A stretch of DNA of 64,000 nucleotides from Candidatus Uhrbacteria bacterium (lineage in GTDB: Bacteria > Patescibacteriota > Patescibacteriia > UBA9934): positions 1,502-65,501 of the forward strand of contig JABHCP010000002.1 in assembly GCA_018673485.1 (NCBI GenBank), in the 5' to 3' direction. Within the stretch, counting starts at the first letter, position 1. The number at the start of each line of letters is the position of its first letter. Under the pieces are notes generated by a model. The model searched no databases. It saw nothing but the letters and a program-made list of their open reading frames with translations, and was not told the DNA's origin. Positions 547-59,408 of this stretch are shown one piece after another. The position numbers and the translations under genes were made by a program.

Positions 547-622
547 GGTGGACCCTATCGGAGTCGAACCGATGACCTCCTCGGTGCAAGCGAGGCGCTC
601 TAGCCAGCTGAGCTAAGGGCCC
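546..622 (-). tRNA. tRNA-Ala (anticodon TGC), CCA encoded
   Basis: Reverse complement GGGCCCTTAGCTCAGCTGGCTAGAGCGCCTCGCTTGCACCGAGGAGGTCATCGGTTCGACTCCGATAGGGTCCACCA folds as canonical cloverleaf; anticodon loop CTTGCAC. Confidence 0.85.
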
Positions 623-3643: not shown

Positions 3644-4630
3644 TTATGCAATTTTATTAGGTAAACGTTTGTTATTTGTAAAAGCTAAAATGTTTTTTAG
3701 TGCAATCTGTCCCATGGCATCGCGCGCTTCGATCGTGGCTGACGCTGTATGCGGTGTTAAGATTACATTTGGCATTTTCCTGAGTTCAAATTTATCTCTT
3801 GGGTTGCAGTCGATCTTTGGTTCACATTCATAAACGTCTAGCCCAGCTCCGGCAATGTCGCCATTTTTTAGGGCCTTGATGAGTTCAGTTTCATCGACTA
3901 CTGGGCCCCGCGAGGTGTTTATTAGGAAAGCTGTTTTTTTCATGGCCTTCAGCTCCTTTGTGCTTATTAGGTGATGTGTTGCTTTTAGTAGTGGTACATG
4001 GAGCGTTACGATATCAGCTTCTTTTAGGAGTTGAGTTTTAGTTCTGAGTTTTGCTTTAAAATCCTTTTCGTATTTTGTATTTCGTTTGATGTCGTTGTAT
4101 ATAATCTTTACTCCAAATCCATCATAGAGCCGTTTTGAAATGCTGTATCCGATTCTCCCAGCTCCTATAACCCCAATCGTTTTACCAGATAGTCCGCTTC
4201 CAAGCATGAGTCCTGGATCCCATCCTTTATATTTTTTCGCTCGCGTGAAATTATCAGCCTCAATTAATCTATGTGCTAGTCCAAAGATCATTGCGATTGC
4301 GTGTTCAGCAACGGACTCTGTACTTTGATCACACGGCGTGTTGATAACTCGAATTTTTCGTCTCTTCGCCTCTTCGATATCTATATTATCAAAACCAACT
4401 GCATAGTTTGCGATCATTTTAAGCTGATCACCAGCCGCGTCCATAACTTGTGCGTCAATTCTGTCAGTGAGCAATGAAAGAATAATATCAGCGCCTTTAA
4501 CGCGCTTGAGAAGTTCTTTTCGTGGGATGATTTGATCTTTTTTGTATACAGAAACTTCAAACCCTTTTTGTTTTGAAAGTTTTTCAATTGCAGTTCCAGG
4601 GAACTGTCGCGTAACAAATATTTTGGTCAT
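3644..4630 (-). CDS. D-isomer-specific 2-hydroxyacid dehydrogenase (glycerate/hydroxypyruvate reductase family)
   Basis: NAD-binding GVIGAGRIGYSISKRL motif and the usual catalytic-region spacing for this family. Confidence 0.85.
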   Translation of the reverse strand: MTKIFVTRQFPGTAIEKLSKQKGFEVSVYKKDQIIPRKELLKRVKGADIILSLLTDRIDAQVMDAAGDQLKMIANYAVGFDNIDIEEAKRRKIRVINTPCDQSTESVAEHAIAMIFGLAHRLIEADNFTRAKKYKGWDPGLMLGSGLSGKTIGVIGAGRIGYSISKRLYDGFGVKIIYNDIKRNTKYEKDFKAKLRTKTQLLKEADIVTLHVPLLKATHHLISTKELKAMKKTAFLINTSRGPVVDETELIKALKNGDIAGAGLDVYECEPKIDCNPRDKFELRKMPNVILTPHTASATIEARDAMGQIALKNILAFTNNKRLPNKIA

Positions 4631-4736: not shown

Positions 4737-5711
4737 TTATATCAACTTAACTTTAACTCTCTTGAGAGCGGCCCTTGTTGGCCACTTGTTCAATATTCCA
4801 ATTTTTGCACCATATGACTGAATCACTGACTCCGCGTTTAACATCCCGACCTTGAGCGCCTCATCGATTCCCATTCCTTTTGCAAGCGCTGAAACTAGCC
4901 CTGATCCGAATGAATCTCCAGCACCAGTGCGTGATATCGCTTTCTTGCCTTGCGGTCTGATATACCAAGTTGTTCCATCCAGGTGAGCATATGCGCCATT
5001 TGGGCCATCTGTGATTATCACAGTGAGCCCGGGGAGCGCTAACTTCTCGCAAAGCTCTTTAATACTGGATTTATTATCTTTGGTGAGCTCTCGAGCTTCC
5101 TCAGTATTTAGATTAAACAGTGTTAGATGTTTCATGATCGGGAGCAGTTCCTTTAGTCCCTTGCTAAGCTCTCCGCCTCCAGGATTAAAGGCGATCAGTG
5201 TTTTGTTTTTGCGAGCTTCTTTTACAACTTTTAGAGCGAGCGATGTATTACCTGCCAGAGATGTAATATAGAGCCATTTTGATTTTAGCTTTTTAAGCGG
5301 TACGTCTTTGATTTGGAATTCGCTAGAAACACCACGATGAACGAGCGCACTGCGCTCTCCATTTTTTGCAGTTAGCAAAACACTATAACCAGTTGTACCT
5401 TTTTTGATTTTGTTAACGAGAGTTGTTTTGACGTTGAACTTTTTTAGATCATTGATCACTGACTCGGCAGCATCGTCGTCACCAACTCTGGTAATGACTG
5501 CGGTATTAAATCCAAGTGATGCAAATGTCGCAGCTGAGTTTGTTCCACCTCCACCAGTAGTTCTTACCACAGTCTCGACATCGATTTTACTTCCAAACGG
5601 AACGCACTCACCAACACCTGTTGAGAATTTGTCAGAATTAATAAGCTGAAAATTCTTTGATGCCAAGAAAACATCTCGAGTAGCTGATCCAATTGTTATG
5701 ATGTCGTACAT
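4737..5711 (-). CDS. PfkB-family carbohydrate kinase (ribokinase-like)
   Basis: N-terminal GGGGTNSAATFASLG and C-terminal GAGDSFGSGLVSALAKG signatures of the PfkB/ribokinase family. Confidence 0.85.
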   Translation of the reverse strand: MYDIITIGSATRDVFLASKNFQLINSDKFSTGVGECVPFGSKIDVETVVRTTGGGGTNSAATFASLGFNTAVITRVGDDDAAESVINDLKKFNVKTTLVNKIKKGTTGYSVLLTAKNGERSALVHRGVSSEFQIKDVPLKKLKSKWLYITSLAGNTSLALKVVKEARKNKTLIAFNPGGGELSKGLKELLPIMKHLTLFNLNTEEARELTKDNKSSIKELCEKLALPGLTVIITDGPNGAYAHLDGTTWYIRPQGKKAISRTGAGDSFGSGLVSALAKGMGIDEALKVGMLNAESVIQSYGAKIGILNKWPTRAALKRVKVKLI

Positions 5712-5719
5712 ATAATTTT

Positions 5720-5799
5720 GTCATTCCTGGCCCCGACCAGGAATCTATCATTTATCGAATTTGATATTCGATGGTTCCCGGATCGGGGTCCGGGATGAC
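5720..5799. repeat. compound hairpin repeat element (family A copy 1): GTCATYCC-hairpin-GGRATCYATCRTTTATC ... GGGATGAC
   Basis: Near-identical cores at 12311-12399 and 23954-24080. Confidence 0.65.
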
Positions 5800-5800
5800 A

Positions 5801-6631
5801 CTAAGCCTCGTGCTTTTCCCAAAGCTTAATGAAGTATAGATAGTTTTTCGCAATTTTCTCTACTGCTTGCTTGCGTGTAATTTTTTTATCTTTGAATTGC
5901 TCAAGCGGTTTGTAGAATATGGTGCGACCAATTGCAAACCCACTAACTACACCGGACTTTGCCGCTGCGATAATCCAGTCTTCTACCTTTGCTTTGCTTG
6001 CCCCCCGACCCAATATAACTAAGTCGCTTTTTGCAACTTTGTATATCTCTTTCCATTGTTTTGCATATGGTAGGCCTTCGAGCTTCCATACATCAGGGTC
6101 AGAACCTGCTTTTTTCATTTCTATAATCGCTTTTCTCATTTGTTTGAAACGAGACCCCTTACCTGTCATTAGTGGCTCATTCAGCCATTTTTGATCATGA
6201 TTCTTACACCAGTCATTAAGTCTTTTAAGTCGCGCATTCTGAATCTTATTGGCTTCTTTTTGACTTACGTCATATCGGACAAGTGCTTTTGCGTATGTAG
6301 GTTTCATTTCTTTAAGATGCTTTCCAAATCCGTTACCATATTTAAATTGAAAGAATAGCTGTCCACTTTGTTCTACTGACATGGCAAATGGAATCATCTG
6401 CTTTTGGCACGCTTTTATGACGTGAGAACCAAATTCTTCATCAATAAGAATGCCCATGTCCTCTGAATGCTCGTATTGATTATGAGCTAGCATAAAACCG
6501 TCAAAAACTACGCTTTTCATTTTACTAACCTCACGAAGTTGAGCGGCTGTTTTTACAGGGTATTTAAAGCCTAGGAGCTTTTCTGCAAATGTTGAACGAT
6601 GATCAAATGGCAAAATAAATAGTCGATCCAT
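5801..6631 (-). CDS. class I aldolase-fold protein (DhnA/FbaB-like or DUF2090-like)
   Basis: C-terminal GFAIGRTIF resembles the GRNxFQ motif of DhnA-type class I aldolases; immediately adjacent to the PfkB kinase. Confidence 0.45.
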   Translation of the reverse strand: MDRLFILPFDHRSTFAEKLLGFKYPVKTAAQLREVSKMKSVVFDGFMLAHNQYEHSEDMGILIDEEFGSHVIKACQKQMIPFAMSVEQSGQLFFQFKYGNGFGKHLKEMKPTYAKALVRYDVSQKEANKIQNARLKRLNDWCKNHDQKWLNEPLMTGKGSRFKQMRKAIIEMKKAGSDPDVWKLEGLPYAKQWKEIYKVAKSDLVILGRGASKAKVEDWIIAAAKSGVVSGFAIGRTIFYKPLEQFKDKKITRKQAVEKIAKNYLYFIKLWEKHEA

Positions 6632-6649
6632 ATGTCCCCATTATAGCAT

Positions 6650-7210
6650 TTATCGGAAATCCGATCCTTTGTAGATGTAGAATGGTAGAGCTTTGTCAGT
6701 TTTGAGTACTTTGCTTGGTTTTATGTTCTCCATCGCCCATCCTTGTACTGCAATCAGTGCCTCGTCTTTGAGTTCAGCTTTGAATTTTTCTTTAAGCCTG
6801 TCATATGCTTTTGTGAGCAAGAATATAATGATGATGTCCGCGTTGTCGATGGATTGCTTGAATAGATTCTTGTACTTAATTTGTACGTTCTTGTATTTGA
6901 GCGCTCTGAGTTTTGCGATCAGATAGGGGATCACGGAAATCTCACACCCAATAAAATTTGCCTTGGTATTTTCTTTAGCTAGTGCAAAAAGCAGGGTTCC
7001 AGTACCGCAGCCAAGATCATAAATTATCTGCCCAGGCTTTATTTCCAGACTCTTCACCAACGCCTTTTTTTCACGTCGTTTAGTAGGTACCCATGGGGCA
7101 GCTGATAGGCCGGCGACAGCGCCGGTTGCGACAGCGATCCAGATAATAGCAAATATTACCCATGACGCTGTGGGGTATAGTTCAAAAAGATCTGAAAATG
7201 GATTTGTCAT
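6650..7210 (-). CDS. class I SAM-dependent methyltransferase with N-terminal TM helix
   Basis: Motif I DLGCGTGTLLFAL; small Rossmann MTase size. Confidence 0.7.
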   Translation of the reverse strand: MTNPFSDLFELYPTASWVIFAIIWIAVATGAVAGLSAAPWVPTKRREKKALVKSLEIKPGQIIYDLGCGTGTLLFALAKENTKANFIGCEISVIPYLIAKLRALKYKNVQIKYKNLFKQSIDNADIIIIFLLTKAYDRLKEKFKAELKDEALIAVQGWAMENIKPSKVLKTDKALPFYIYKGSDFR

Positions 7211-8768: not shown

Positions 8769-9470
8769 CTATCTTCCGTCAATGCCCAGTGTTGATAAAA
8801 GCTCTCTTCGTTCTGTTTTTGTGAGTTGTCGATAGTTTCCGGGGCCAAGCTCACCGAGCTTTACATTCATTACTCGAATGCGTTTGAGTGTTGCAACTTC
8901 GTATCCGAGTGCTGTACACATCCTTCTGATTTGTCGGTTGCGACCTTCCTTGAGGATGATTTTAAATTTCTTTGGACCAAGATTTTTTACAGGTGCAGGA
9001 TTTGTTACTCGTCCGTCGAGCATCACGCCCTTTTTCATTCCATCGAGAAACTTTCGATTCATTTCTTTGTTCACAGTAACAACGTATTCTTTTTCATGCT
9101 CAAATTTTGGACTGGCAATTTTATTGGCAATATCGCCGTTATTTGTGAGAAGTAATAGTCCAGTAGACTCAACATCAATTCGACCAATGTAGATTAGGCG
9201 CTCATCAGAATCGATGTAGTCAAAAACGGTATTGTCGGCATCCTCATCTGAAGTGCAGATAACACCATATGGTTTGTGAAATGCGATGAAGACATCACCT
9301 GAGCGTGGTCTGATGAGCTCACCGTCGACATAGACCTTCTGTCCTTCTTCAACCTGCTGCCCAACTTTTGCCAGATCATTCCCAATAGTAACCCGACCGT
9401 CATCAATAAGCGTGTCGGCTTTTCGTCTTGAACAAAATCCAGAATCAGCAATGTATTTGTTTAGTCTCAT
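8769..9470 (-). CDS. rRNA pseudouridine synthase, RsuA/RluB family (S4 domain + catalytic domain)
   Basis: N-terminal S4 (LNKYIADSGFCSRRKADTLI), catalytic motifs HKPYGVICT and GRIDVESTGLLLLTNNG. Confidence 0.85.
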   Translation of the reverse strand: MRLNKYIADSGFCSRRKADTLIDDGRVTIGNDLAKVGQQVEEGQKVYVDGELIRPRSGDVFIAFHKPYGVICTSDEDADNTVFDYIDSDERLIYIGRIDVESTGLLLLTNNGDIANKIASPKFEHEKEYVVTVNKEMNRKFLDGMKKGVMLDGRVTNPAPVKNLGPKKFKIILKEGRNRQIRRMCTALGYEVATLKRIRVMNVKLGELGPGNYRQLTKTERRELLSTLGIDGR

Positions 9471-9517: not shown

Positions 9518-9548
9518 CCAAGGTTGAACCTTAGAGGTTCAACCTTGG
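9518..9548. promoter_or_regulatory. palindrome ccaaggttgaacct-tag-aggttcaaccttgg (copy 2 of 2)
   Basis: Same element as 697-726; located about 50 bp upstream of the pseudouridine synthase start. Confidence 0.5.
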
Positions 9549-13904: not shown

Positions 13905-14012
13905 ATGTGTTTATTATATCGCAGGTAGTAGGAAGTAGGAAGTAGAAAATAGAACACAAAAAGTCTCGATCGCTCGAGACTTTTTACTTTAACTATAAAC
14001 TTTGACCTTTAT

Positions 14013-18391: not shown

Positions 18392-21274
18392 ATGACAGAC
18401 AAAAAGCGCGAAACTCATTCTCAAAAAGAGCACAAGATTGCTGATTATTGGGATAAAAACAAATGTTTTGAAAAGTCAGTAGAAAGTCGACCAGAAGGTA
18501 AGCCCTATGTTTTCTATGATGGCCCTCCTTTTGCAACCGGTCTTCCTCATTACGGCCATCTTGTAGGGTCGATAATGAAAGATGTCATTCCGCGTTATTG
18601 GACAATGAAAGGTTTTCGCGTAGAGCGCGTTTGGGGTTGGGACTGTCATGGGCTTCCGGTCGAGAATATTGTCGAGAAGCAACTTAAGCTTGGATCACGC
18701 CAAGATATTGAAAAGTTTGGTGTCGATAAGTTTAACGACAAGTGTCGTAATTGCGTTTTGACGTACGCAGAGGAATGGAAGAAGGTTATTCATCGATTAG
18801 GTCGTTGGATCGATATGGAGAATGCCTACAAGACGATGGATGTTGAGTACATGGAATCCATTTGGTGGGTGTTCAAATCGCTCTGGGACAAAGACATGAT
18901 CTATGAAGGGCGAAAGCCAATGCATATCTGCCCACGTTGCGAGACGGTGCTCTCAAACTTCGAGGTGACACAAGGTTATGAGGACGTAACCGACATTTCT
19001 GTAACTGTGAAGTTGAAACTGACTGATGGAAAGTATAAAGATGCATCACTTTTGGTTTGGACAACAACTCCATGGACTTTACCTGGAAATGTTTTGGCTG
19101 CTGTTGGGGCAGACGTTGATTATGTTGTAGTTCAAGTCGAAGATGAGAAGTTTATTATTGCTGAACCACTCGTGAAAGAGGTTTTGAAGGATGTTGAGTT
19201 TGAGCAGGTTGAAACATTGAAAGGTTCAGATCTTGTTGGCGCGACCTACGAACCAATTTTTCCTTTCTTTAAAGATCATGAAAATGCGTTTCGAGTTGTT
19301 GCGGCTGATTTTGTTACAACTGAGGACGGAACGGGGATCGTGCATATTGCACCTGGGTTTGGAGATGATGACATGCAACTTGGGCTTACGGAAAAGGTTG
19401 ATCCAATCATGCACGTCAATATGGATGGTACTTTTGTGCCTGAGGTTGCAGATCCGTTGCAGGAAGCTGGTTATGAAGTGAAGGATAGGCCAATGAAAGC
19501 AAAGGGCGACACCATGAGTGTTGATATTGAGGTTTTAAAATGGCTTGCACACAACGATAAGCTTTTCAAAAAGAAAAAAGTAGAGCACAGCTACCCGCAT
19601 TGTTGGCGTTGTGACACTCCGCTTTTGAATTACAGTACAAGTTCATGGTTTGTGCGTGTGACTGACATTAAGGAACAGTTAGTGCGAACAAATAAGGAGA
19701 TTAATTGGGTACCAGGGAACTTTAAAGAGGGGAGATTTGGAAAGTGGCTTGAGGGCGCTCGTGATTGGGCAATTTCTCGTTCACGATATTGGGGAACCCC
19801 GCTTCCAGTTTGGCGCGCAGAAGATGGCGAAACACTTTGCGTTGGCTCTAAGGCTGAGCTTGAGGAGCTCTCAGGTAAAAAAGTCGATGATCTGCATAAA
19901 CACATTGTTGATACGGTTGAGATTACGAAGGACGGAAAGGTTTACACGCGCATTCCTGAGGTATTAGACTGTTGGTTTGAATCTGGTTCAATGCCGTATG
20001 CACAATTGCATTATCCGTTTGAAAATAAGCAAAAATTTGAACAAGGGTTCCCGGCTGAGTTTATTGCCGAGGGGCAAGATCAAACGCGTGGTTGGTTTTA
20101 TACCTTGCACGTACTTTCAAATGCGCTTTTCAACATGCCTACATTTAAGAATGTGATTGTGAATGGAATTGTGCTGGCTGAGGACGGGAAGAAGATGTCT
20201 AAGCGTTTGCAGAACTATCCTGATCCAATGGAGGTGATGGATAAGTACGGGGCGGATGCTGTTCGATATTATTTGATGTCGACTCCTGTGGTGCGAGCCG
20301 AGAATTTACGGTTCAGTGAAGAGGGTGTGGTCGAGGTTTCTAAGAAGTTCATCAATATAATGAACAACGTGCTCTCATTTTATAAGTTGTATGCAAAAAA
20401 TGATGATGGACGAGCTCCATCGGGATTAAACGTGCTTGATAACTGGATACTTTCAAGATTGAATCAAACACTCAAAGAGCAAACCGAGGCATTGGACGGT
20501 TATGAACTTTCAATCGCAGCGCGCGTACTGCAGAGCTTTGTTACCGATCTTTCAACCTGGTACGTTCGGCGCTCAAGAGATCGATTTAAGGTTGAGGGTG
20601 AAGACCATGCCGAGGCGCTTGCTACATTGCGAGTGGTGCTCGAGACTTTCGCAAAGATGGTGGCCCCATTCATGCCTTACTTGGGCGAGGAGATTTATCA
20701 GGGAGTAACGGGAGAGTATAAAGATGAAGAGCGATTGAGTGTTCATCTGGAAGACTGGCCTCATATGGATTCGGTTGATGAGGATGTGCTCGAGAAGATG
20801 GGCCAAGCTCGCGCGATCGTTAGCCGAGTGCTTGAAGCTCGTGAAGAGGCAGGACGACCAATCAAGCAGGCATTGGGAGATATGACAGTTTGGACACCAT
20901 CTGGTGAGATCGTTGAAGATTATCAGGCCGTAATTTTGGGAGAGGTGAATGTGAAAGCTATGAAGGTTGAAAAGGGTGAGCTGAAGGTAGAGGTTGATAT
21001 GGAGCTAACGCCTGAGTTAATCCGCGAAGGAATGGCACGCGACATAACTCGTCGAGTGAACCAAATGCGCAAAGAGGCTGGTCTCACAATCAACGATCGG
21101 ATCGAGCTTAGAATGAGCTCAGAGTCCGATGAAGTTAAGAAGCTTTTCAAAGAGCACGCGGATACAATTAAAGATGGCACACTTGCAGATTCGATCGAGT
21201 TCACAAAAGACGAATCAGTAGAACGCAAGCAAGAAGTCCGAATCGCAGAACAAGAAGTTTGGTTGGGGTTCTAG
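18392..21274 (+). CDS. ileS: isoleucyl-tRNA synthetase
   Basis: HYGH (PHYGHLVGS) and KMSKR (KMSKRLQNY) motifs, 960 aa class I synthetase. Confidence 0.95.
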   Translation: MTDKKRETHSQKEHKIADYWDKNKCFEKSVESRPEGKPYVFYDGPPFATGLPHYGHLVGSIMKDVIPRYWTMKGFRVERVWGWDCHGLPVENIVEKQLKLGSRQDIEKFGVDKFNDKCRNCVLTYAEEWKKVIHRLGRWIDMENAYKTMDVEYMESIWWVFKSLWDKDMIYEGRKPMHICPRCETVLSNFEVTQGYEDVTDISVTVKLKLTDGKYKDASLLVWTTTPWTLPGNVLAAVGADVDYVVVQVEDEKFIIAEPLVKEVLKDVEFEQVETLKGSDLVGATYEPIFPFFKDHENAFRVVAADFVTTEDGTGIVHIAPGFGDDDMQLGLTEKVDPIMHVNMDGTFVPEVADPLQEAGYEVKDRPMKAKGDTMSVDIEVLKWLAHNDKLFKKKKVEHSYPHCWRCDTPLLNYSTSSWFVRVTDIKEQLVRTNKEINWVPGNFKEGRFGKWLEGARDWAISRSRYWGTPLPVWRAEDGETLCVGSKAELEELSGKKVDDLHKHIVDTVEITKDGKVYTRIPEVLDCWFESGSMPYAQLHYPFENKQKFEQGFPAEFIAEGQDQTRGWFYTLHVLSNALFNMPTFKNVIVNGIVLAEDGKKMSKRLQNYPDPMEVMDKYGADAVRYYLMSTPVVRAENLRFSEEGVVEVSKKFINIMNNVLSFYKLYAKNDDGRAPSGLNVLDNWILSRLNQTLKEQTEALDGYELSIAARVLQSFVTDLSTWYVRRSRDRFKVEGEDHAEALATLRVVLETFAKMVAPFMPYLGEEIYQGVTGEYKDEERLSVHLEDWPHMDSVDEDVLEKMGQARAIVSRVLEAREEAGRPIKQALGDMTVWTPSGEIVEDYQAVILGEVNVKAMKVEKGELKVEVDMELTPELIREGMARDITRRVNQMRKEAGLTINDRIELRMSSESDEVKKLFKEHADTIKDGTLADSIEFTKDESVERKQEVRIAEQEVWLGF

Positions 21275-21300
21275 GTTGAATTATCATTATTAGTTGTGAA

Positions 21301-21338
21301 AACGTATAATGTCCCGATCGGGACATTATACGTTTTGT
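21301..21338. terminator. 17 bp perfect palindromic hairpin aaaacgtataatgtccc-gatc-gggacattatacgtttt (ileS terminator)
   Basis: Perfect stem, 4 nt loop, immediately 3' of ileS. Confidence 0.65.
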
Positions 21339-21358
21339 GAAAGAGGTTTTATTTTATA

Positions 21359-21423
21359 AGCTTAGCCAAAACAGCTTAGCCATTTGGGCTAAGCCTGAAT
21401 GGCTAAGCTGTTTTGGCTAAGCT
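21359..21423. promoter_or_regulatory. iteron-like inverted repeat: four copies of AGCTTAGCC in 25 bp perfect inverted arms overlapping the -35 of the downstream gene
   Basis: agcttagccaaaacagcttagccat ... atggctaagctgttttggctaagct; a TAAAAT -10 lies 16 nt after TTGGCT. Confidence 0.55.
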
Positions 21424-21448
21424 CAAATTTGTTGTAAAATACCCATAT

Positions 21449-22282
21449 ATGAATAATGAACATACAGTTTTAGTCTGCCCGCGTAATGATGAGGAGTCAT
21501 TGCAGATTATTAAGATTGCAAAAGAGTTGCGGATTCCGATGATTGTGTCAGAGCAGGGGCATGGGGCTGTGCTTGAGAATGAGAAGGATTTGATCGAGTC
21601 TATTAAGTTGGTTGATTCGGCTGCATCTGCGGTGGCGATTGTGGAGATACCGGGGGTTGAGGTTGAGCAGGAGCTTCAAAAGGCAGGTTTCGAGGTGCAT
21701 ATTATCGATCATCATCGGTATAACGATCTTGATCGGCTTAATGATCAGAGCTCGCTGGAGCAATTCCTTGATTTGTATGAGATTGATGATGATGAACTTA
21801 AAGACGCTGGGTTTGATTTGGTGTTGATAAGGGCGGTGGCTGCTGTTGATCGGGGATTTTTGTGGGAGTTGCAGAAGATTGGGCTTTCAGACGAGGATCA
21901 GAAGCGTGCCATTCAATATATTAAAGAACTCGCTTATGAATTGGGGCGCAAGGAGCGTAAGCAAGAGGAGAAGGCAGCGCGTAAGGCCTGGGAGGGTCGT
22001 CGCGAGCAGGGTGGATTTTTGATAATTGAAAGCGAGGATGATGACATGGATATTCGCGATGCAGTTTCGTATTTTATTTTTGATGAATACGGAAAGCCAA
22101 CGCCTGCGATCATCAAACAAGGTAATCGCAAGCTATATGTGCAGGAGACTGACAAGGCAAAAGATCTGATCGGAAAGTATAAGGGGTTTCTTTTTGGTGG
22201 TGGAGGTTGTTGGGGGATGCTATCTCCACGCGATGGGCGGTTAGCTGAGATTGATGAGTTGATTGAAATTTTGCATAAATAA
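21449..22282 (+). CDS. hypothetical protein
   Basis: Start placed at MNNEHTVLV (21449) because the upstream ATG at 21413 lies inside the inverted repeat. Confidence 0.5.
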   Translation: MNNEHTVLVCPRNDEESLQIIKIAKELRIPMIVSEQGHGAVLENEKDLIESIKLVDSAASAVAIVEIPGVEVEQELQKAGFEVHIIDHHRYNDLDRLNDQSSLEQFLDLYEIDDDELKDAGFDLVLIRAVAAVDRGFLWELQKIGLSDEDQKRAIQYIKELAYELGRKERKQEEKAARKAWEGRREQGGFLIIESEDDDMDIRDAVSYFIFDEYGKPTPAIIKQGNRKLYVQETDKAKDLIGKYKGFLFGGGGCWGMLSPRDGRLAEIDELIEILHK

Positions 22283-22395
22283 ACCATCCAGAGGAGCCTA
22301 AAGGCGACGAAGGATCCCGTGCGTAGCCGATCTAACGTAGACGTAAACATCGGGACTCCTCGCAGGACCCTGAGTGGGTGGTAGAAGCAGGCCCC
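22283..22395. repeat. hairpin repeat module (family D copy 2)
   Basis: ggatcccgtgcgtagccgatctaacgt core shared with 10290-10320. Confidence 0.55.
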
Positions 22396-22741
22396 TAAGG
22401 GCTTGTTTTGTTTTGGGTAATTTGTTATTATTTTGCAGCTGCGTACATTCGGTGCGTACAAACTTCATCTTTTGAGGCTGCCATGAGCGACAACTTCCTG
22501 ATCATCTTCATTTAGTCGCCCTCGCGCGACACACTTACGCAACACTGACCGTTTCTATATTGGTCAGTCTACGCCCGGTCTTCTTGATCTGGGCGTTTGT
22601 GGTTTTGCGAAATATAGAACCCAGACGAGATACTTAAGTCCCCCTCCTTTTTAAGGAGGGGTTAGGGGTGGTTATAAGATAGTTTCAATATCTGTGTTCT
22701 GTAGTCTGGGTTCTGTCTTCTGCATGTTGTATACTGTAATC

Positions 22742-23935
22742 ATGTTCGATAAAATCGAAAATAAGAAACGAAAGGAGACGTATCCATTTTTGGAATGGAT
22801 GGATCGTTTTGTGCTTACTGAGGAGAATTTGCGACAAGCAAGAGACGTTATGTATGAGCTTGAAGCTCAAGTGAGCGAGCTCTCACAGGTTCATAGGACT
22901 CCACAGTCAGCAAACCATCACGCAGAAGGTCCGATGATGACCAATCATATCGAGAATATGATTGCTGGTATTTTTGCGATTTGTGAAGGTAAGGTCTCAC
23001 TATCGCAAATTGAAGAATTTGCCCGCGAGAAGCATTTTAAAAATGAAATCGCAGAGTTGGAAGACGTAATTTGTGAAAATGCGGCAACGCTTAAGGCGTT
23101 TACGATGCTTCACGACATTGCCAAGTACGATACAATTTCGTTTAGCTCACCAGCGGGGTCAAAGGGTGCCGCTGAGGGTTTTTCCAAAGATTCACGACTG
23201 GATAAGAGCGCTTTAATCGATCGATATTTGAAATTGCTCAATGCATTTAAAGTTGATCTTCCTGATCTTGATTCTCGGCAAGTAGCGATAGACTTTTATA
23301 AAGAGTTTGAGATTAAGGTTCACTACAAGGGGCATGCAAAAGTTGCTGTATCGGATAAATATGAAGAAGTGCGCAATACCGTTGAAGATTTGTGTAGGTT
23401 AACTGCACGTGACCGCGAGATTTTAGCGCTTACAATCAAGTATCACATTGAGGTGATGGATTTTATTGGTGATAAACCTGATGGAGCTCGCTATTCATAT
23501 TTGCAACGCGTAGGGCAAAGGTCAGGAATCGATGGAAATGATTTATTAGATGTCCAAACCGCGGCCCTATTGCTCGATGCATTAATTGGAAGTATTGGAT
23601 ATCAGGATGGTGCGCTTGTGCCTGACATAGAGCTTGTATTGAACATGTTGCGTTCCGAGGAGCTTGCGGTTGTAGAGCGAAGACATGCGAGGGTCAAAAA
23701 GATCGAGAATAAAAAGCAAAGTGAGTTTAAGAAAATGTTAGAGAGCGTTGGGCTTGGCGGTGGTGATGTTTTTAAACTGTTAGATATTCCATTTGGCCCA
23801 GGGCGTGCTGGTATCATCGATAAGGTGCAAAATGCCGTCAAGACAGGTGATTTGTCTGAGCTGGGAGAGTATAAAGATAAGCTGTATTCCAAGGTTCAGC
23901 AGGCGCATTTGCTGTATGCCACCTCGATGGAGTAA
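22742..23935 (+). CDS. HD-domain hypothetical protein
   Basis: ANHHAEG ... TMLHDIAKYD ... HYKGHAK ... D pattern of HD phosphohydrolases; start moved to MFDKIENKK because the upstream portion overlaps a repeat element. Confidence 0.55.
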   Translation: MFDKIENKKRKETYPFLEWMDRFVLTEENLRQARDVMYELEAQVSELSQVHRTPQSANHHAEGPMMTNHIENMIAGIFAICEGKVSLSQIEEFAREKHFKNEIAELEDVICENAATLKAFTMLHDIAKYDTISFSSPAGSKGAAEGFSKDSRLDKSALIDRYLKLLNAFKVDLPDLDSRQVAIDFYKEFEIKVHYKGHAKVAVSDKYEEVRNTVEDLCRLTARDREILALTIKYHIEVMDFIGDKPDGARYSYLQRVGQRSGIDGNDLLDVQTAALLLDALIGSIGYQDGALVPDIELVLNMLRSEELAVVERRHARVKKIENKKQSEFKKMLESVGLGGGDVFKLLDIPFGPGRAGIIDKVQNAVKTGDLSELGEYKDKLYSKVQQAHLLYATSME

Positions 23936-33767: not shown

Positions 33768-34982
33768 TTATGATGATGGTTCGAGTGCTTTGATTGCCAT
33801 TAGTGTCCGACGGGCTGCGGCGTCCCAGGAGAAGATTCCTGGAATGTGGGCGCCGACTTCGTGTTCGTGTTTTAATCCTACGTCGATTGCGTGAACTAGA
33901 TCGTTTACATTGAATGGGTCGACGTATGTTACGTGCTCTTTTCCAACTTCTTGCATGGATCCAGTGAAGCTTGTTACTACATGTGTACCGCTGGCTATTG
34001 CCTCGACTATCGGTAAGCCGAAGCCTTCAAAAAATGATGGAAATAGGAACAGTTCGGCGTGCCTATAAAGTGTTGGTTTGTGTTTTTCTGGAATGTATCC
34101 AAGAACGTGAATATCATTTGTGTATTTTGAATTTTTGATGCGTTTGTGAAGATTATCATTCTTCCAACCTCGTCCGCCTGCAATCACTAGGTGCGGGACG
34201 GCAACCCCCTCCAGCTCCCCCTTGGGAAGGGGGAGGGTTGAAGCACGCCACTTTTCGTACGCTTCGACGATTGTCTCTATATTTTTGCGTGGTTCAAGAG
34301 TGCATAGACTTAAAATATATGGAAATTCAATATCGTGTTGTTTTAAATTGTTTGTGTCACAGGCTTGCTCTTTTGCTTTGAATCGATCATCTACTCCAAG
34401 TGGTGTAGTAACCATTCGATCCTCACCAACGCCCCACAAGGCGTTTAAGTTTTGCTTTGTGTTTTCTGACACTGTAAGAACGAGCTCTGCATGCTCGGCC
34501 AAATATCGTGGTCGTGCAGCTTTGTGCCAAATTCTATCTTTGACACGAAAGAAACTTGGAAAGAGCTCAAAGGAAAGGTCGTGCATGGTGATTACGTAGG
34601 GACGGTGCGTTTTGATGATGTTTATATTTGGGAAAAACCATAGATCTGGTTTTTCTGGTAAAAAATCTTCCAGTGTATGCGCTGTGAAATGAAGTTTTGC
34701 TGAAAGCGCACGATTGGGCATTTCGTGCTTAACGATTGTAATATTCTTTCCTGAAAACTTTGGAAGCTTAGAAAGTGTTTCCGGTGCTCCTGATGCAAAA
34801 AGAGTAAAACGATCATCCGGCGCAATTTTCGCCATGCGTTTTATAATTTCAATCGTGTACCGACCAATACCTGAATGTTGATCGGTCGTTAGATGTCGAA
34901 TGTCGATGGCGAGGTGCATGGATCTAATGATTAAGTGTTTAAGTTGTTTAAGGTGTTTATTCGAAATAAACATTTTAGACAT
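33768..34982 (-). CDS. glycosyltransferase family 4
   Basis: EGFGLPIVEAIASGTHVVTS motif. Confidence 0.85.
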   Translation of the reverse strand: MSKMFISNKHLKQLKHLIIRSMHLAIDIRHLTTDQHSGIGRYTIEIIKRMAKIAPDDRFTLFASGAPETLSKLPKFSGKNITIVKHEMPNRALSAKLHFTAHTLEDFLPEKPDLWFFPNINIIKTHRPYVITMHDLSFELFPSFFRVKDRIWHKAARPRYLAEHAELVLTVSENTKQNLNALWGVGEDRMVTTPLGVDDRFKAKEQACDTNNLKQHDIEFPYILSLCTLEPRKNIETIVEAYEKWRASTLPLPKGELEGVAVPHLVIAGGRGWKNDNLHKRIKNSKYTNDIHVLGYIPEKHKPTLYRHAELFLFPSFFEGFGLPIVEAIASGTHVVTSFTGSMQEVGKEHVTYVDPFNVNDLVHAIDVGLKHEHEVGAHIPGIFSWDAAARRTLMAIKALEPSS

Positions 34983-37614: not shown

Positions 37615-37711
37615 AGTGTTCTAATTATAGCGCAGAAGGTAGAAGGTAGAAAGTAGAAGGTAGTGTCAAAACTAAAACTACATTCTACATTCTACTCTCT
37701 ACATTCTATTT

Positions 37712-38185: not shown

Positions 38186-38362
38186 GGCAAACGATACCAT
38201 GATTAGCGCAGAATGTCAATGGGGGCAGACGTCAGAACCCAGACGTCAGACTACAGTTTAGTGTTATGACTGGATTCTGACGTCTGTATTCTGGGTTCTG
38301 TAAAAACAGTGATCCCCCGGACGTGGTCCGGGGGATAAGTGGGTCGTAGGGCTCGAGCCGTG

Positions 38363-46160: not shown

Positions 46161-46247
46161 TGGCTGAATAGAAAGTATAAAGTACAAAGTTTAAAGTAGA
46201 TTTTAGAACCGGCGTATGTCGGTTCTTTTGGTCGTCACCCCAGAGCC

Positions 46248-52037: not shown

Positions 52038-52119
52038 AGGGAGGAGGGTTTAAATGTTTAAGTTGTTTAAGGTGTTTATTTCGGAATAGACAATTTAAAC
52101 ATTTTCAACATTTTAAACA

Positions 52120-53067
52120 TTATAGTTTTGGTATCGACTTCAGTACTTCTTTAAGTTTTTTTGGAATTGGTGCGGTGAATGTTTTTGTCTCACCTGAAGG
52201 AAGAGTAATTGTTAGCTCTCGTGAGTGCAGGAATATCCGATCGATGTTCATCAGTTTTTGATCACGTTGTTTGTACAGAGGGTCACCAACAATCGGATGC
52301 TTGATAGCAAACATGTGCGCGCGGATTTGGTTGGTTCGCCCGGTTTCGATTTTTACGTTAAGTAGTGCGTGATGCGGGAATTGATCAACCACTTCGTAGT
52401 GCGTTATTGCAGATTTACCACCTTGCGATTCTGGTCGCGCTGCCATCTTACCGGTGGACTTAGAACGTCCGATAGTTAGTGTGATAGTGTCATACGGTTT
52501 TGGCATTGTGCCGTGAACCAACGCCGTGTATTCCTTTGTTGTTTTTCTTTCTTTGAATTGTGCTTTTAAGTGCTCAAAAGCTTTTTGTGTTTTTGCAGTG
52601 ATCAAAACACCGGACGTGAACTTGTCGAGTCTGTGCACGATCCCGGCTCGTTTTTCGTCATCACCAACTTTCTTCACCTTACGGTTTCGAGCAACTAACG
52701 CATCGCGCAAAGTTGTGTCTGTGCTGATCTCTGTTGGATGTACTAGCAGGCCAGCAGGTTTGTTTACAACTAAAACATCCTTATCTTCATATATAATATC
52801 GAGCTCGACAGTTTTCTGCTTTTTGAAGAGCTTTATCTTAGGTTTCTCGATGTGATATTCAATTTTATTCTCACGACTAACCTGTGTTTTTTTGTTGGCA
52901 GTTTTACCATCAACCAAAACTTCTCCTTTTTCTATCATCTTAGTGAGTTTCGATCGACTCAAATCAAGCATAGACGCCAAGACCTTATCCAAGCGCTCAG
53001 GTACTTCATTTGTAAGCTTTAATGTTTTCATAACGGCAGTATCGCACGATTGACGCGCATGGGTCAA
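52120..53067 (-). CDS. RluA-family pseudouridine synthase (RluD-like, S4 domain)
   Basis: HRLDKFTSGVLITAKT catalytic motif; probable true start MKTLKL at 53031. Confidence 0.85.
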   Translation of the reverse strand: MTHARQSCDTAVMKTLKLTNEVPERLDKVLASMLDLSRSKLTKMIEKGEVLVDGKTANKKTQVSRENKIEYHIEKPKIKLFKKQKTVELDIIYEDKDVLVVNKPAGLLVHPTEISTDTTLRDALVARNRKVKKVGDDEKRAGIVHRLDKFTSGVLITAKTQKAFEHLKAQFKERKTTKEYTALVHGTMPKPYDTITLTIGRSKSTGKMAARPESQGGKSAITHYEVVDQFPHHALLNVKIETGRTNQIRAHMFAIKHPIVGDPLYKQRDQKLMNIDRIFLHSRELTITLPSGETKTFTAPIPKKLKEVLKSIPKL

Positions 53068-59143: not shown

Positions 59144-59408
59144 GGAAATATTATATCAAAAGTATTCAGTATGCAGTAGGCAGTATACAGTTTTTGTCCC
59201 CCTCCTTTTTACCCTTCAATATAACTCAGGGTACCCTGAGCGAAGTCGAATGGGTAAGGAGGGGCCAGGGGTGGTTATAATATAGCTTCAATCTTTCGAG
59301 TTAAAAAGCAAACGACCCTGAACCGTAGTGATTCAGGGCGCGGCCGCACCCGACGAATTCGGGGGCGGTTGGAGATGTAGTCAAATTGGGATTACGGATT
59401 TGGCATGA

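Follow-up and report, generated by a model that had tools for sequence, protein, structure and literature searches.

Organization of the ileS-phosphoesterase region

The window analyzed here is the whole 64,000-nt stretch of Candidatus Uhrbacteria DNA (contig JABHCP010000002.1, positions 1,502 to 65,501), with positions counted from its first letter. Between ileS and the gene that follows it, the window contains a 65-bp array of short palindromes (21359 to 21423), which we propose to be a binding site for a regulatory protein. Upstream of the array, ileS (18392 to 21274, plus strand) encodes a 960-aa isoleucyl-tRNA synthetase (Pfam tRNA-synt_1, 2.4e-144; Anticodon_1; DUF5915). It is followed by an intrinsic terminator at 21299 to 21340 on the plus strand, in which a 17-bp stem with a 4-nt loop (a 19+19 perfect palindrome) precedes TTTTGTG, with a folding energy of -25.1 kcal/mol (z -7.4). 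The list returned by a consensus terminator scan did not include this terminator. Its homologue in the related locus L135 (L-numbers label related or matched loci) has kept a perfect stem with a different sequence, indicating that pairing was maintained by compensatory changes.

Downstream of the array, a promoter-like site, TTGGCT-16-TAAAAT, spans 21413 to 21440 on the plus strand. Its -35-like hexamer (21413 to 21418) is built from a spacer and the first bases of the last palindrome of the array, which holds the last four of the six hexamer bases, and its -10 hexamer (21435 to 21440) lies 8 nt upstream of an ATG at 21449. This ATG opens a gene of the plus strand (21449 to 22282) for a 277-aa protein that matches DHH/DHHA1-family phosphoesterases (NrN/NrnA-like) by fold. 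The original prediction, made from the sequence of the window, had placed the array just after the ileS terminator and over the -35 element of the downstream gene, and both placements agreed with our analysis, the promoter being a predicted one.

The array consists of five RGCTWAGCY sites, each a 9-bp palindrome of the form 4-1-4, with a start-to-start distance of exactly 14 bp throughout. As a whole it is a near-perfect palindrome with its center at 21391 and no strand assigned; the arms around this point are perfectly complementary over 25 nt and 94% complementary over 32 nt. We named the sites U1 to U5 from the promoter outward. U1 (21415 to 21423), the promoter-proximal site that overlaps the -35 hexamer, and U2 (21401 to 21409) both read GGCTAAGCT and were assigned to the minus strand, whereas U4 (21373 to 21381) and U5 (21359 to 21367) read AGCTTAGCC, its reverse complement, on the plus strand. 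Their centers fall at about -28 (U1), -42 (U2), -70 (U4), and -84 (U5) from the inferred transcription start. The central site U3 (21387 to 21395, no strand, center about -56) reads GGCTAAGCC. The spacers are A/T-rich 5-mers (AAAAC, ATTTG, TGAAT, and GTTTT). The four 9-bp sites in perfect 25-nt inverted arms had been described in the original prediction and were confirmed, while U3, described there as degenerate, turned out to be the fully symmetric form: it differs from the repeat by one mismatch and is itself a perfect 4-1-4 palindrome because it sits on the global dyad.

The exact 9-mer has no further copy in the window. A search for GCTWAGC-N7-GCTWAGC with up to 2 mismatches found the array only, with four consecutive matches against 0.38 expected from shuffles, and of the seven GCTWAGC cores that the window contains, five belong to the array. 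The same intergenic sequence was present, letter for letter, in five contigs from other metagenome samples (L006 to L010), showing that the array is not an assembly artifact; being identical, these contigs offer no strain-level variation. The array is a non-chance feature.

Conservation of the array at orthologous loci

Orthologous loci were gathered by exact-protein look-up and by a metagenome scan with protein alignment. In the commonest arrangement, ileS and the phosphoesterase gene either overlap (L175) or are separated, from stop to start codon, by no more than a short gap of 1 nt (L003, L004, and L136), 9 nt (L176), or 33 nt (L174). This close-coupled arrangement is ancestral, and the six loci have neither promoter nor array. 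The junction is otherwise variable, with two inserted genes in L001, two other inserted genes in L005, and spacers of 174 bp in the window, 413 bp in L135, and 440 bp in the L137/L143 lineage, where the spacer includes a 165-bp miniature inverted-repeat transposable element (MITE). Palindromes centered on CTWAG were found only in the three spacer-bearing lineages, namely, the window strain, L135, and L137 (represented also by L141 and L143). Across about 356 kb of Uhrbacteria-like DNA, CTWAG-N9-CTWAG occurred only directly upstream of the orthologous gene, with 0.28 pairs expected by chance.

When the three arrays were aligned by anchoring on the -10 hexamer, the center of the proximal site lay exactly 16 bp upstream of TAAAAT in every case, and the spacer, together with the leading bases of this site, formed a -35-like TTGNCT. 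The window has five sites, L135 has six (one degenerate), and L137 has two. At the same 14-bp period, the L135 array reads, toward the promoter, GGCTAAGCT, the degenerate GGCTCGGTC in the place of U5, GGCTTAGCC in the register of U4, GGCTAAGCC identical to U3, AGCTAAGCC in the register of U2, and GGCTAAGCC; the four promoter-proximal units of the window are orthologous to those of L135. Although the two proteins are only 75% identical, the 7-bp cores of these four units are identical at 28 of 28 positions, compared to 15 of 28 for the 7-mers between the cores. Conserved cores with diverged spacers are a footprint of the kind expected for protein-binding sites. In L137, GACTTAGAC-ATTTT-GTCTAAGTC occupies the two proximal positions, the first in the register of U2, and related motifs lie out of register further upstream. 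This variant, GACTWAGTC, keeps the CTWAG center, the dyad symmetry, the 14-bp spacing, and the position, which is the pattern expected if the site co-evolves with a protein.

The promoter shows a similar pattern. The sequence GTAAAATRC-N5-ATG is kept in the window, L135, L137, and L005 (twice in the latter), L001 has the close variant GTTAAAATGC-N5-ATG before the orthologue, and more distant orthologues have other -10-like hexamers 6 to 9 nt ahead of the ATG. Equivalents of the -35 element are found 16 to 17 bp before the -10 in L135 (TTGGCT), L137 (TTGTCT), and L005 (TTGTCA). From the conserved spacing between the ATG and the -10 of this predicted sigma-70-like promoter, we infer a leaderless or near-leaderless transcript that would start just downstream of the array.

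In a neighbor-joining protein tree, array-bearing and array-less lineages were interleaved, suggesting that the cassette of terminator, putative operator, and promoter was either repeatedly lost or exchanged by recombination.

The downstream gene encodes a predicted DHH/DHHA1 phosphoesterase

The 277-aa protein has 147 homologues in Patescibacteria, including a 100% match to Candidatus Uhrbacteria HN358_05250, and the residues D87-H88-H89 are invariant among the homologues. Pfam gave no family at an E value of ≤0.01, no precomputed Pfam hit was found among 120 homologues, and NCBIfam returned one spurious sub-threshold match only. An AlphaFold model was of high confidence, with a predicted local distance difference test score (pLDDT) of 93.9 and a predicted template modeling score of 0.90. 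The best Foldseek match of the model was NrN (9lqb; E value 4e-10, template modeling score 0.72), a phosphodiesterase of the DHH type that degrades S-adenosylmethionine-AMP (SAM-AMP) (PMC10600005). Other structural matches were archaeal PAP phosphatase, RecJ, NrnA/Pde2, and PggH; the profile match to NrnA (PMC9757072) was weak, with an E value of 0.2. Judging from the model, the protein is an enzyme with a two-domain DHH + DHHA1 fold and no DNA-binding domain, and it belongs to a divergent DHH/DHHA1 family that is recognizable by fold only. The phosphoesterase would be the regulated target rather than the regulator.

A putative cooperative operator

On balance, we consider the array likely to be a cooperative, multi-dimer operator at the phosphoesterase promoter, probably repressive, for a putative regulator encoded elsewhere. 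The phased sites with conserved cores and diverged spacers support the binding of a regulator put forward in the original prediction, although not its suggestion of autoregulation by the downstream gene product. In the window, the motif occurs only at this locus and the downstream protein has no DNA-binding fold, a combination that the original prediction had expected to weaken a regulatory role; it is the conservation of the array in relatives that keeps the regulatory reading, with the regulator placed elsewhere in the genome. Array-like architecture with other motifs at other promoters, GGTTSAACC in the window and GGAGCTWAGCTCC in a Parcubacteria contig (both described below), was also counted in favor of an operator.

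In the mechanism that we propose, each dyad would be occupied by a small DNA-binding protein in dimeric form, whose gene lies in another part of the genome. Our best guess for the reader of each 9-bp palindrome is a compact dimer resembling ribbon-helix-helix (RHH) proteins, and a helix-turn-helix (HTH) dimer straddling the A/T spacers (TWAGCY-N5-RGCTWA) would fit equally well. With a 14-bp period, successive dimers would be rotated by about 120 degrees, with three dimers per 42 bp (four turns), a geometry that allows them to polymerize cooperatively over about 65 bp as a helical array. Occupancy of the proximal site would keep sigma region 4 from the -35 element and thereby repress the gene until a signal frees the protein. 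The perfect 25-bp arms probably result from a recent quasi-palindrome correction that used U1-U2 as the template for U5-U4, and not from selection for a hairpin; L135 has a decayed unit where the window strain shows this copy.

Several observations weigh against this interpretation. The array is missing from most orthologous loci, the closest ones included, and is therefore dispensable. No recognizable DNA-binding domain (HTH, RHH, or winged helix) was found by Pfam in the 26 window proteins scanned, and no suitable regulator gene lies beside the array in relatives. There is no visible regulon, since no second site for the motif was found in the 64-kb window or in about 300 kb of related loci. 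Many short periodic repeats lie near promoters of this genome, so a mutational origin contributes. A scan of a genome collection for three phased GCTWAGC cores gave at least 115 loci and was swamped by tandem repeats: among the matches listed, which did not include the source genome, nearly every one was a simple tandem repeat of 7 or 14 bp from an unrelated phylum. Finally, the promoter and the transcription start are predictions from sequence, and the direction of control (repression or activation) was read from position only.

Other searches were also negative. A tblastn search with the proteins inserted at the ileS junction in relatives gave no homologue. A TrmB-family regulator was considered as a candidate, its gene adjoining the orthologue in L001, lying 2 kb upstream in L137, and apparently lying beside the orthologue in L142, as judged from upstream-sequence similarity only. 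It was rejected because the window has no TrmB homologue, because L143, a longer contig of the L137 lineage, has ileS in place of TrmB upstream, and because L001 has no array. Scans of viral contigs gave nothing for the 9-mer pair, the sole matches being terminator hairpins in one phage group, and a literature search for the literal 9-mers of the array returned incidental primer and site matches only; neither the motif nor a cognate protein is known from earlier descriptions.

Comparison with known operator systems

Read as an operator, the array is of a known kind, the promoter-overlapping cooperative operator, to which it adds a member. By analogy, its closest functional likeness appears to be with the tandem operators of RHH proteins (omega of pSM19035, MetJ, CopG, Arc, and Mnt). 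These operators consist of short sub-sites of 7 to 9 bp, direct and inverted, each taken by one dimer and read cooperatively, such as the 7-bp heptads of omega and the 8-bp metboxes of MetJ; they overlap the -35 and -10 elements of the promoter that they control, and their copy number varies between promoters. The array likewise has several short sub-sites at a fixed period that overlap the -35, and its compact 4-1-4 palindrome would suit a beta-ribbon reading one major groove. Unlike these operators, however, it has a period of 14 bp, not 7, 8, or about 11 bp, there is no RHH gene near it and no autoregulated regulator gene after it, and its target is a chromosomal gene for an enzyme of the housekeeping type.

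The term "iteron-like," used in the original prediction, does not fit. Plasmid iterons are direct repeats of 17 to 22 bp, phased at about 22 bp, in an origin with a rep gene, an A+T-rich unwinding element, and DnaA boxes. The array resembles iterons and the half-iterons of Rep operators in having repeated sites with an inverted pair over a promoter, but its units are 9-bp palindromes of mixed orientation that recur every 14 bp, and it lies in chromosomal intergenic DNA, flanked by ileS and the phosphoesterase gene, with no rep gene or origin. As a long perfect intergenic stem beside a gene end, it also resembles intrinsic terminators and palindromes of the repetitive extragenic palindrome (REP) type, from which it differs in its lack of a U tract, its single copy, its internal 14-bp periodicity, and a hairpin register that is not conserved. 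Dispersal of the REP or MITE type was not seen, the array occurring at one locus in the 64 kb and likewise in all related loci. With the DtxR/IdeR box, the array shares palindromic half-sites that contain TTAG/CTAA about 5 bp apart, with dimers on different faces of the DNA; this box, however, is a single 19-bp unit (TTAGGTTAGCCTAACCTAA), and the overall consensus and spacing of the array differ from it. No DtxR-family gene was seen by Pfam among the 26 window proteins. The exact 9-mers of the array occur in published lists of DtxR sites (PMC1382209, PMC524172), a literal string match that we regard as a weak lead.

Alternative explanations for the array

The main alternative to repression is activation, in which the weakness of the -35 element (TTGGCT) would be offset by dimers centered near -42, -56, and -70 that bring RNA polymerase to the promoter in a class II or UP-type arrangement. 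We regard this as possible though rather unlikely. The position of these site centers is in its favor, as is the better -35 (TTGTCA) of the array-less locus L005, and at three of the loci described below (L067 in Parcubacteria and both GGTTSAACC loci) the palindromes lie entirely upstream of the -35. Repression is favored by the proximal site near -28, which covers the junction of the -35 and the promoter spacer, a typical repressor position, and by the two proximal sites, which show the strongest conservation and, in L137, are the sole perfect in-register ones.

Less probable still is a structural role for the whole palindrome, as a second (backup or bidirectional) terminator, an insulator, an RNase III-type processing stem, or a DNA cruciform. 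As RNA, the array folds at -55 kcal/mol (z about -10) and that of L135 at -43 kcal/mol (z -5); the array adjoins a terminator, and a sub-hairpin of the minus strand followed by GTTTT was flagged in a terminator scan. However, periodic palindromic sites are bound to fold, and the strong predicted fold of the window array is explained by its periodic sites together with the apparently recent inverted copy. The plain terminator that the original prediction had kept as an option is contradicted by the lack of a U/T tract after the stem on either strand (plus, CAAATTTG; minus, TATAAAATAAAACC), and the canonical ileS terminator already lies 20 bp upstream. The hairpin register is not conserved, since the dyad coincides with U3 in the window and with U4 in L135 and lies between two sites, U1 and U2, in L137, and the spacers show no covariation that would preserve pairing (AAAAC/GTTTT in the window compared to ATTTG/ATTTT in L135). 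The conserved -10 and leaderless ATG would also put the array upstream of the predicted transcription start, and Rfam, at both gathering and E-value thresholds, gave generic sub-threshold hairpin matches only (miRNA precursors and similar).

It is also improbable, in our view, that the array is a neutral by-product of slippage or template switching in a variable intergenic hotspot, a repeat with no function of its own. The ileS-phosphoesterase junction is indeed highly variable, from 1-nt coupling to 174- to 440-bp spacers and two inserted genes; MITE-like elements and many 7-bp repeat arrays populate the intergenic DNA of this clade, the perfect 25-bp arms resemble a recent copy event, and simple 7- or 14-bp tandem repeats with GCTWAGC are common across bacteria. 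Against a neutral origin stand the contrast between cores and spacers in lineages whose proteins have diverged by a quarter, the distance to the -10, fixed in three lineages, and the restriction of the array to the phosphoesterase gene within the 356 kb.

A recombination or mobile-element site (an arm-type or accessory site, or the terminal repeat of an element targeting the ileS junction) seems very unlikely. Such a site would account for the patchy phylogenetic distribution, interleaved with coupled loci, for the different cargo genes at the same junction in L001 and L005, and for the MITEs nearby in L143. However, there is one copy in 64 kb with no recombinase near it, the flanks (TTATA| and |CAAAT) are not duplicated, and hence there is no target-site duplication. 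BLAST showed no similarity to plasmids or phages, and none to viral contigs was found, the cargo-bearing loci have no array, and the promoter register is conserved.

Least credible of all is autoregulation by the 277-aa protein, for which speak the restriction of the array to this gene family and the nucleic acid binding of DHH relatives such as RecJ, and against which stand the modeled phosphoesterase fold (pLDDT as given above) with its invariant catalytic DHH motif and its lack of an HTH, RHH, or winged-helix domain, the absence of the array from most orthologues, including ones 66 to 81% identical, and the substrates of NrnA, RecJ, and NrN, which act on single-stranded or very short nucleotides and not on double-stranded operators.

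Implications

To our knowledge, there is almost no experimental knowledge of transcription control in bacteria of the Candidate Phyla Radiation (CPR). If the array is an operator, it leaves current concepts unchanged and is a solid, ordinary cis-regulatory element in a little-studied group. It does provide a short, clean DNA probe of 65 bp with five sites, backed by a comparative footprint, which could serve as bait for a CPR regulator in DNA-affinity capture or DNA affinity purification sequencing. The locus would also illustrate how a small insert of terminator, operator, and promoter may give independent control to a gene ancestrally coupled in translation to ileS. The product under control would be a DHH phosphoesterase that counts nanoRNases and the SAM-AMP-degrading NrN among its relatives, hinting at regulated turnover of nucleotides or nanoRNA in reduced genomes.

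Similar repeats at other promoters

Four GGTTSAACC sites, compared to 0.36 expected, form two pairs in the window, at 700/715 (697 to 726) and 9522/9536 (9518 to 9548). At these loci, the 9-bp palindromes GGTTGAACC and GGTTCAACC lie 14 to 15 bp apart within a palindrome with 14- to 15-bp arms and are followed by AGCTAAAA. Each copy is located between a terminator-like hairpin and a promoter, one for a tRNA (549 to 622, minus strand) and the other for an rluA-like pseudouridine synthase gene (8769 to 9470, minus strand). In Candidatus Parcubacteria contig JAGLUP010000006.1 (34% G+C), three palindromes of the GGAGCTWAGCTCC type at an exact 14-bp period were found at two loci (L036, 7809 to 7843; L067, 495 to 529), with the same core and period as the Uhrbacteria array. 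One of these loci lies just upstream of a TTGACT-17-TATAAT promoter and the other upstream of an RNaseH_like (PF04308) gene. A single GGAGCTAAGCTCC was seen upstream of the ileS promoter in L175.

Tandem repeats of 7 bp, sometimes 9 bp, were found directly upstream of TATAAT boxes, at the place of the -35 and before leaderless-looking genes (13905 to 13950, 37615 to 37708, and 59144 to 59191, and also 46172 to 46198 and 52048 to 52121). Examples are CTACTTC three times and then CTGCGATATAAT, an ATACTGC-like heptad four times and then TTGATATAAT, and ACCTTCT four times and then GCGCTATAAT, with AATGTAG four times further upstream. These heptad arrays may be a genome-wide habit related to the 14-bp (2 × 7) period of the array. 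Many genes in the window have a TATAAT- or TAAAAT-like hexamer 6 to 9 nt before the ATG and no Shine-Dalgarno sequence, a sequence pattern which suggests frequent use of leaderless mRNAs in this Uhrbacteria genome; a literature search on leaderless promoters in Patescibacteria found no paper.

These cases could be parts of a CPR-wide system of promoter control, an idea that we put forward with considerable doubt. In such a system, small DNA-binding proteins would read 9- to 13-bp palindromes or 7-bp repeats at 7- or 14-bp periods in the -35 or upstream zone of leaderless promoters, and terminator-operator-promoter cassettes would be exchanged between strains, uncoupling genes from ancestral operons. 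The cases that speak for it are the five GGCTWAGCC sites described here, GACTWAGTC in a relative, the GGTTSAACC pairs at two promoters of the window, the three GGAGCTWAGCTCC sites before two Parcubacteria genes, and the heptads before three TATAAT boxes of the window. If true as one system, the paired palindromes, the 7-bp arrays, and the Parcubacteria array would be of more interest than the present locus.

Outside this group, the matches listed from the genome collection (L011 to L125) included 7- and 14-bp tandem repeats with GCTAAGC/GCTTAGC in Gemmatimonadota, Actinomycetota, Shewanella, Alteromonas, and others, and three loci from Bacteroidota (L045, L099, and L114) have palindromic arrays of TTAGGGC-like heptamers. 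Heptads of the CAGAACN/CAGACGT type, in four to six copies, directly follow the ileS stop codon in L005 (1498 to 1540), where they precede a terminator hairpin, and in L135 (2588 to 2640). Next to the RNase P RNA gene of the window (38226 to 38300), heptads like these make up an imperfect palindrome.

Further observations on the neighborhood and the junction

The phosphoesterase gene is followed by a terminator-like hairpin at 22384 to 22409 on the plus strand (an 11-pair stem and then GTTTTGGG), indicating a single-gene unit. Beyond it lie a 413-aa open reading frame with HD-like motifs and no Pfam match, ruvA, and femAB, and the GC skew is positive throughout the window. The open reading frame (22694 to 23935) is a conserved gene of 397 to 413 aa, with HD-domain-like motifs NHHAEG ... 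LHDIAKYD, and the genes for the DHH protein and this putative HD phosphohydrolase are syntenic with ruvA and femAB across Uhrbacteria. Its annotated GTG start falls within a TCTGTGT repeat of 4.6 copies (22691 to 22722), and the true start is probably further downstream. A hairpin with a G-rich tail, CCCCCTCCTTTTTAAGGAGGGGTTAGGGGTGG, recurs upstream of several genes (22634 to 22690, about 34198 to 34242, and about 59258 to 59299) and, in L135, also falls within the translation of a spurious 58-aa gene call.

At the junction in relatives, a public 128-aa gene call in L135 (2568 to 2954), which covers the terminator hairpin and the array, is almost certainly no gene and was rejected, as were other small open reading frames called across intergenic DNA. 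The 165-bp MITE-like element has terminal inverted repeats of about 19 bp (GGTCTGTTCCCRAATACCG...) and sits in the loop of a CCCCTCCTT...AAGGAGGGG hairpin after ileS. It was found in L137 at 2582 to 2746 and, as a second, inverted copy downstream of femAB, at 6591 to 6752, and in L143 at 5585 to 5746; contigs of the same species part exactly at this element. Conserved non-coding blocks (ATTATTTCCATCTCGACGATAG ... GAGATGGAAGTGTGARGGCTGGTYTTTTG) with complementary ends (TTCCATCTCGA / TCGAGATGGAA) are shared by L135 (2630 to 2830) and L137 (2790 to 2900) and could represent a small structured RNA or another MITE. Strings resembling ttcccatctcgacg also occur upstream of the window gene at 3644 to 4630 (minus strand).

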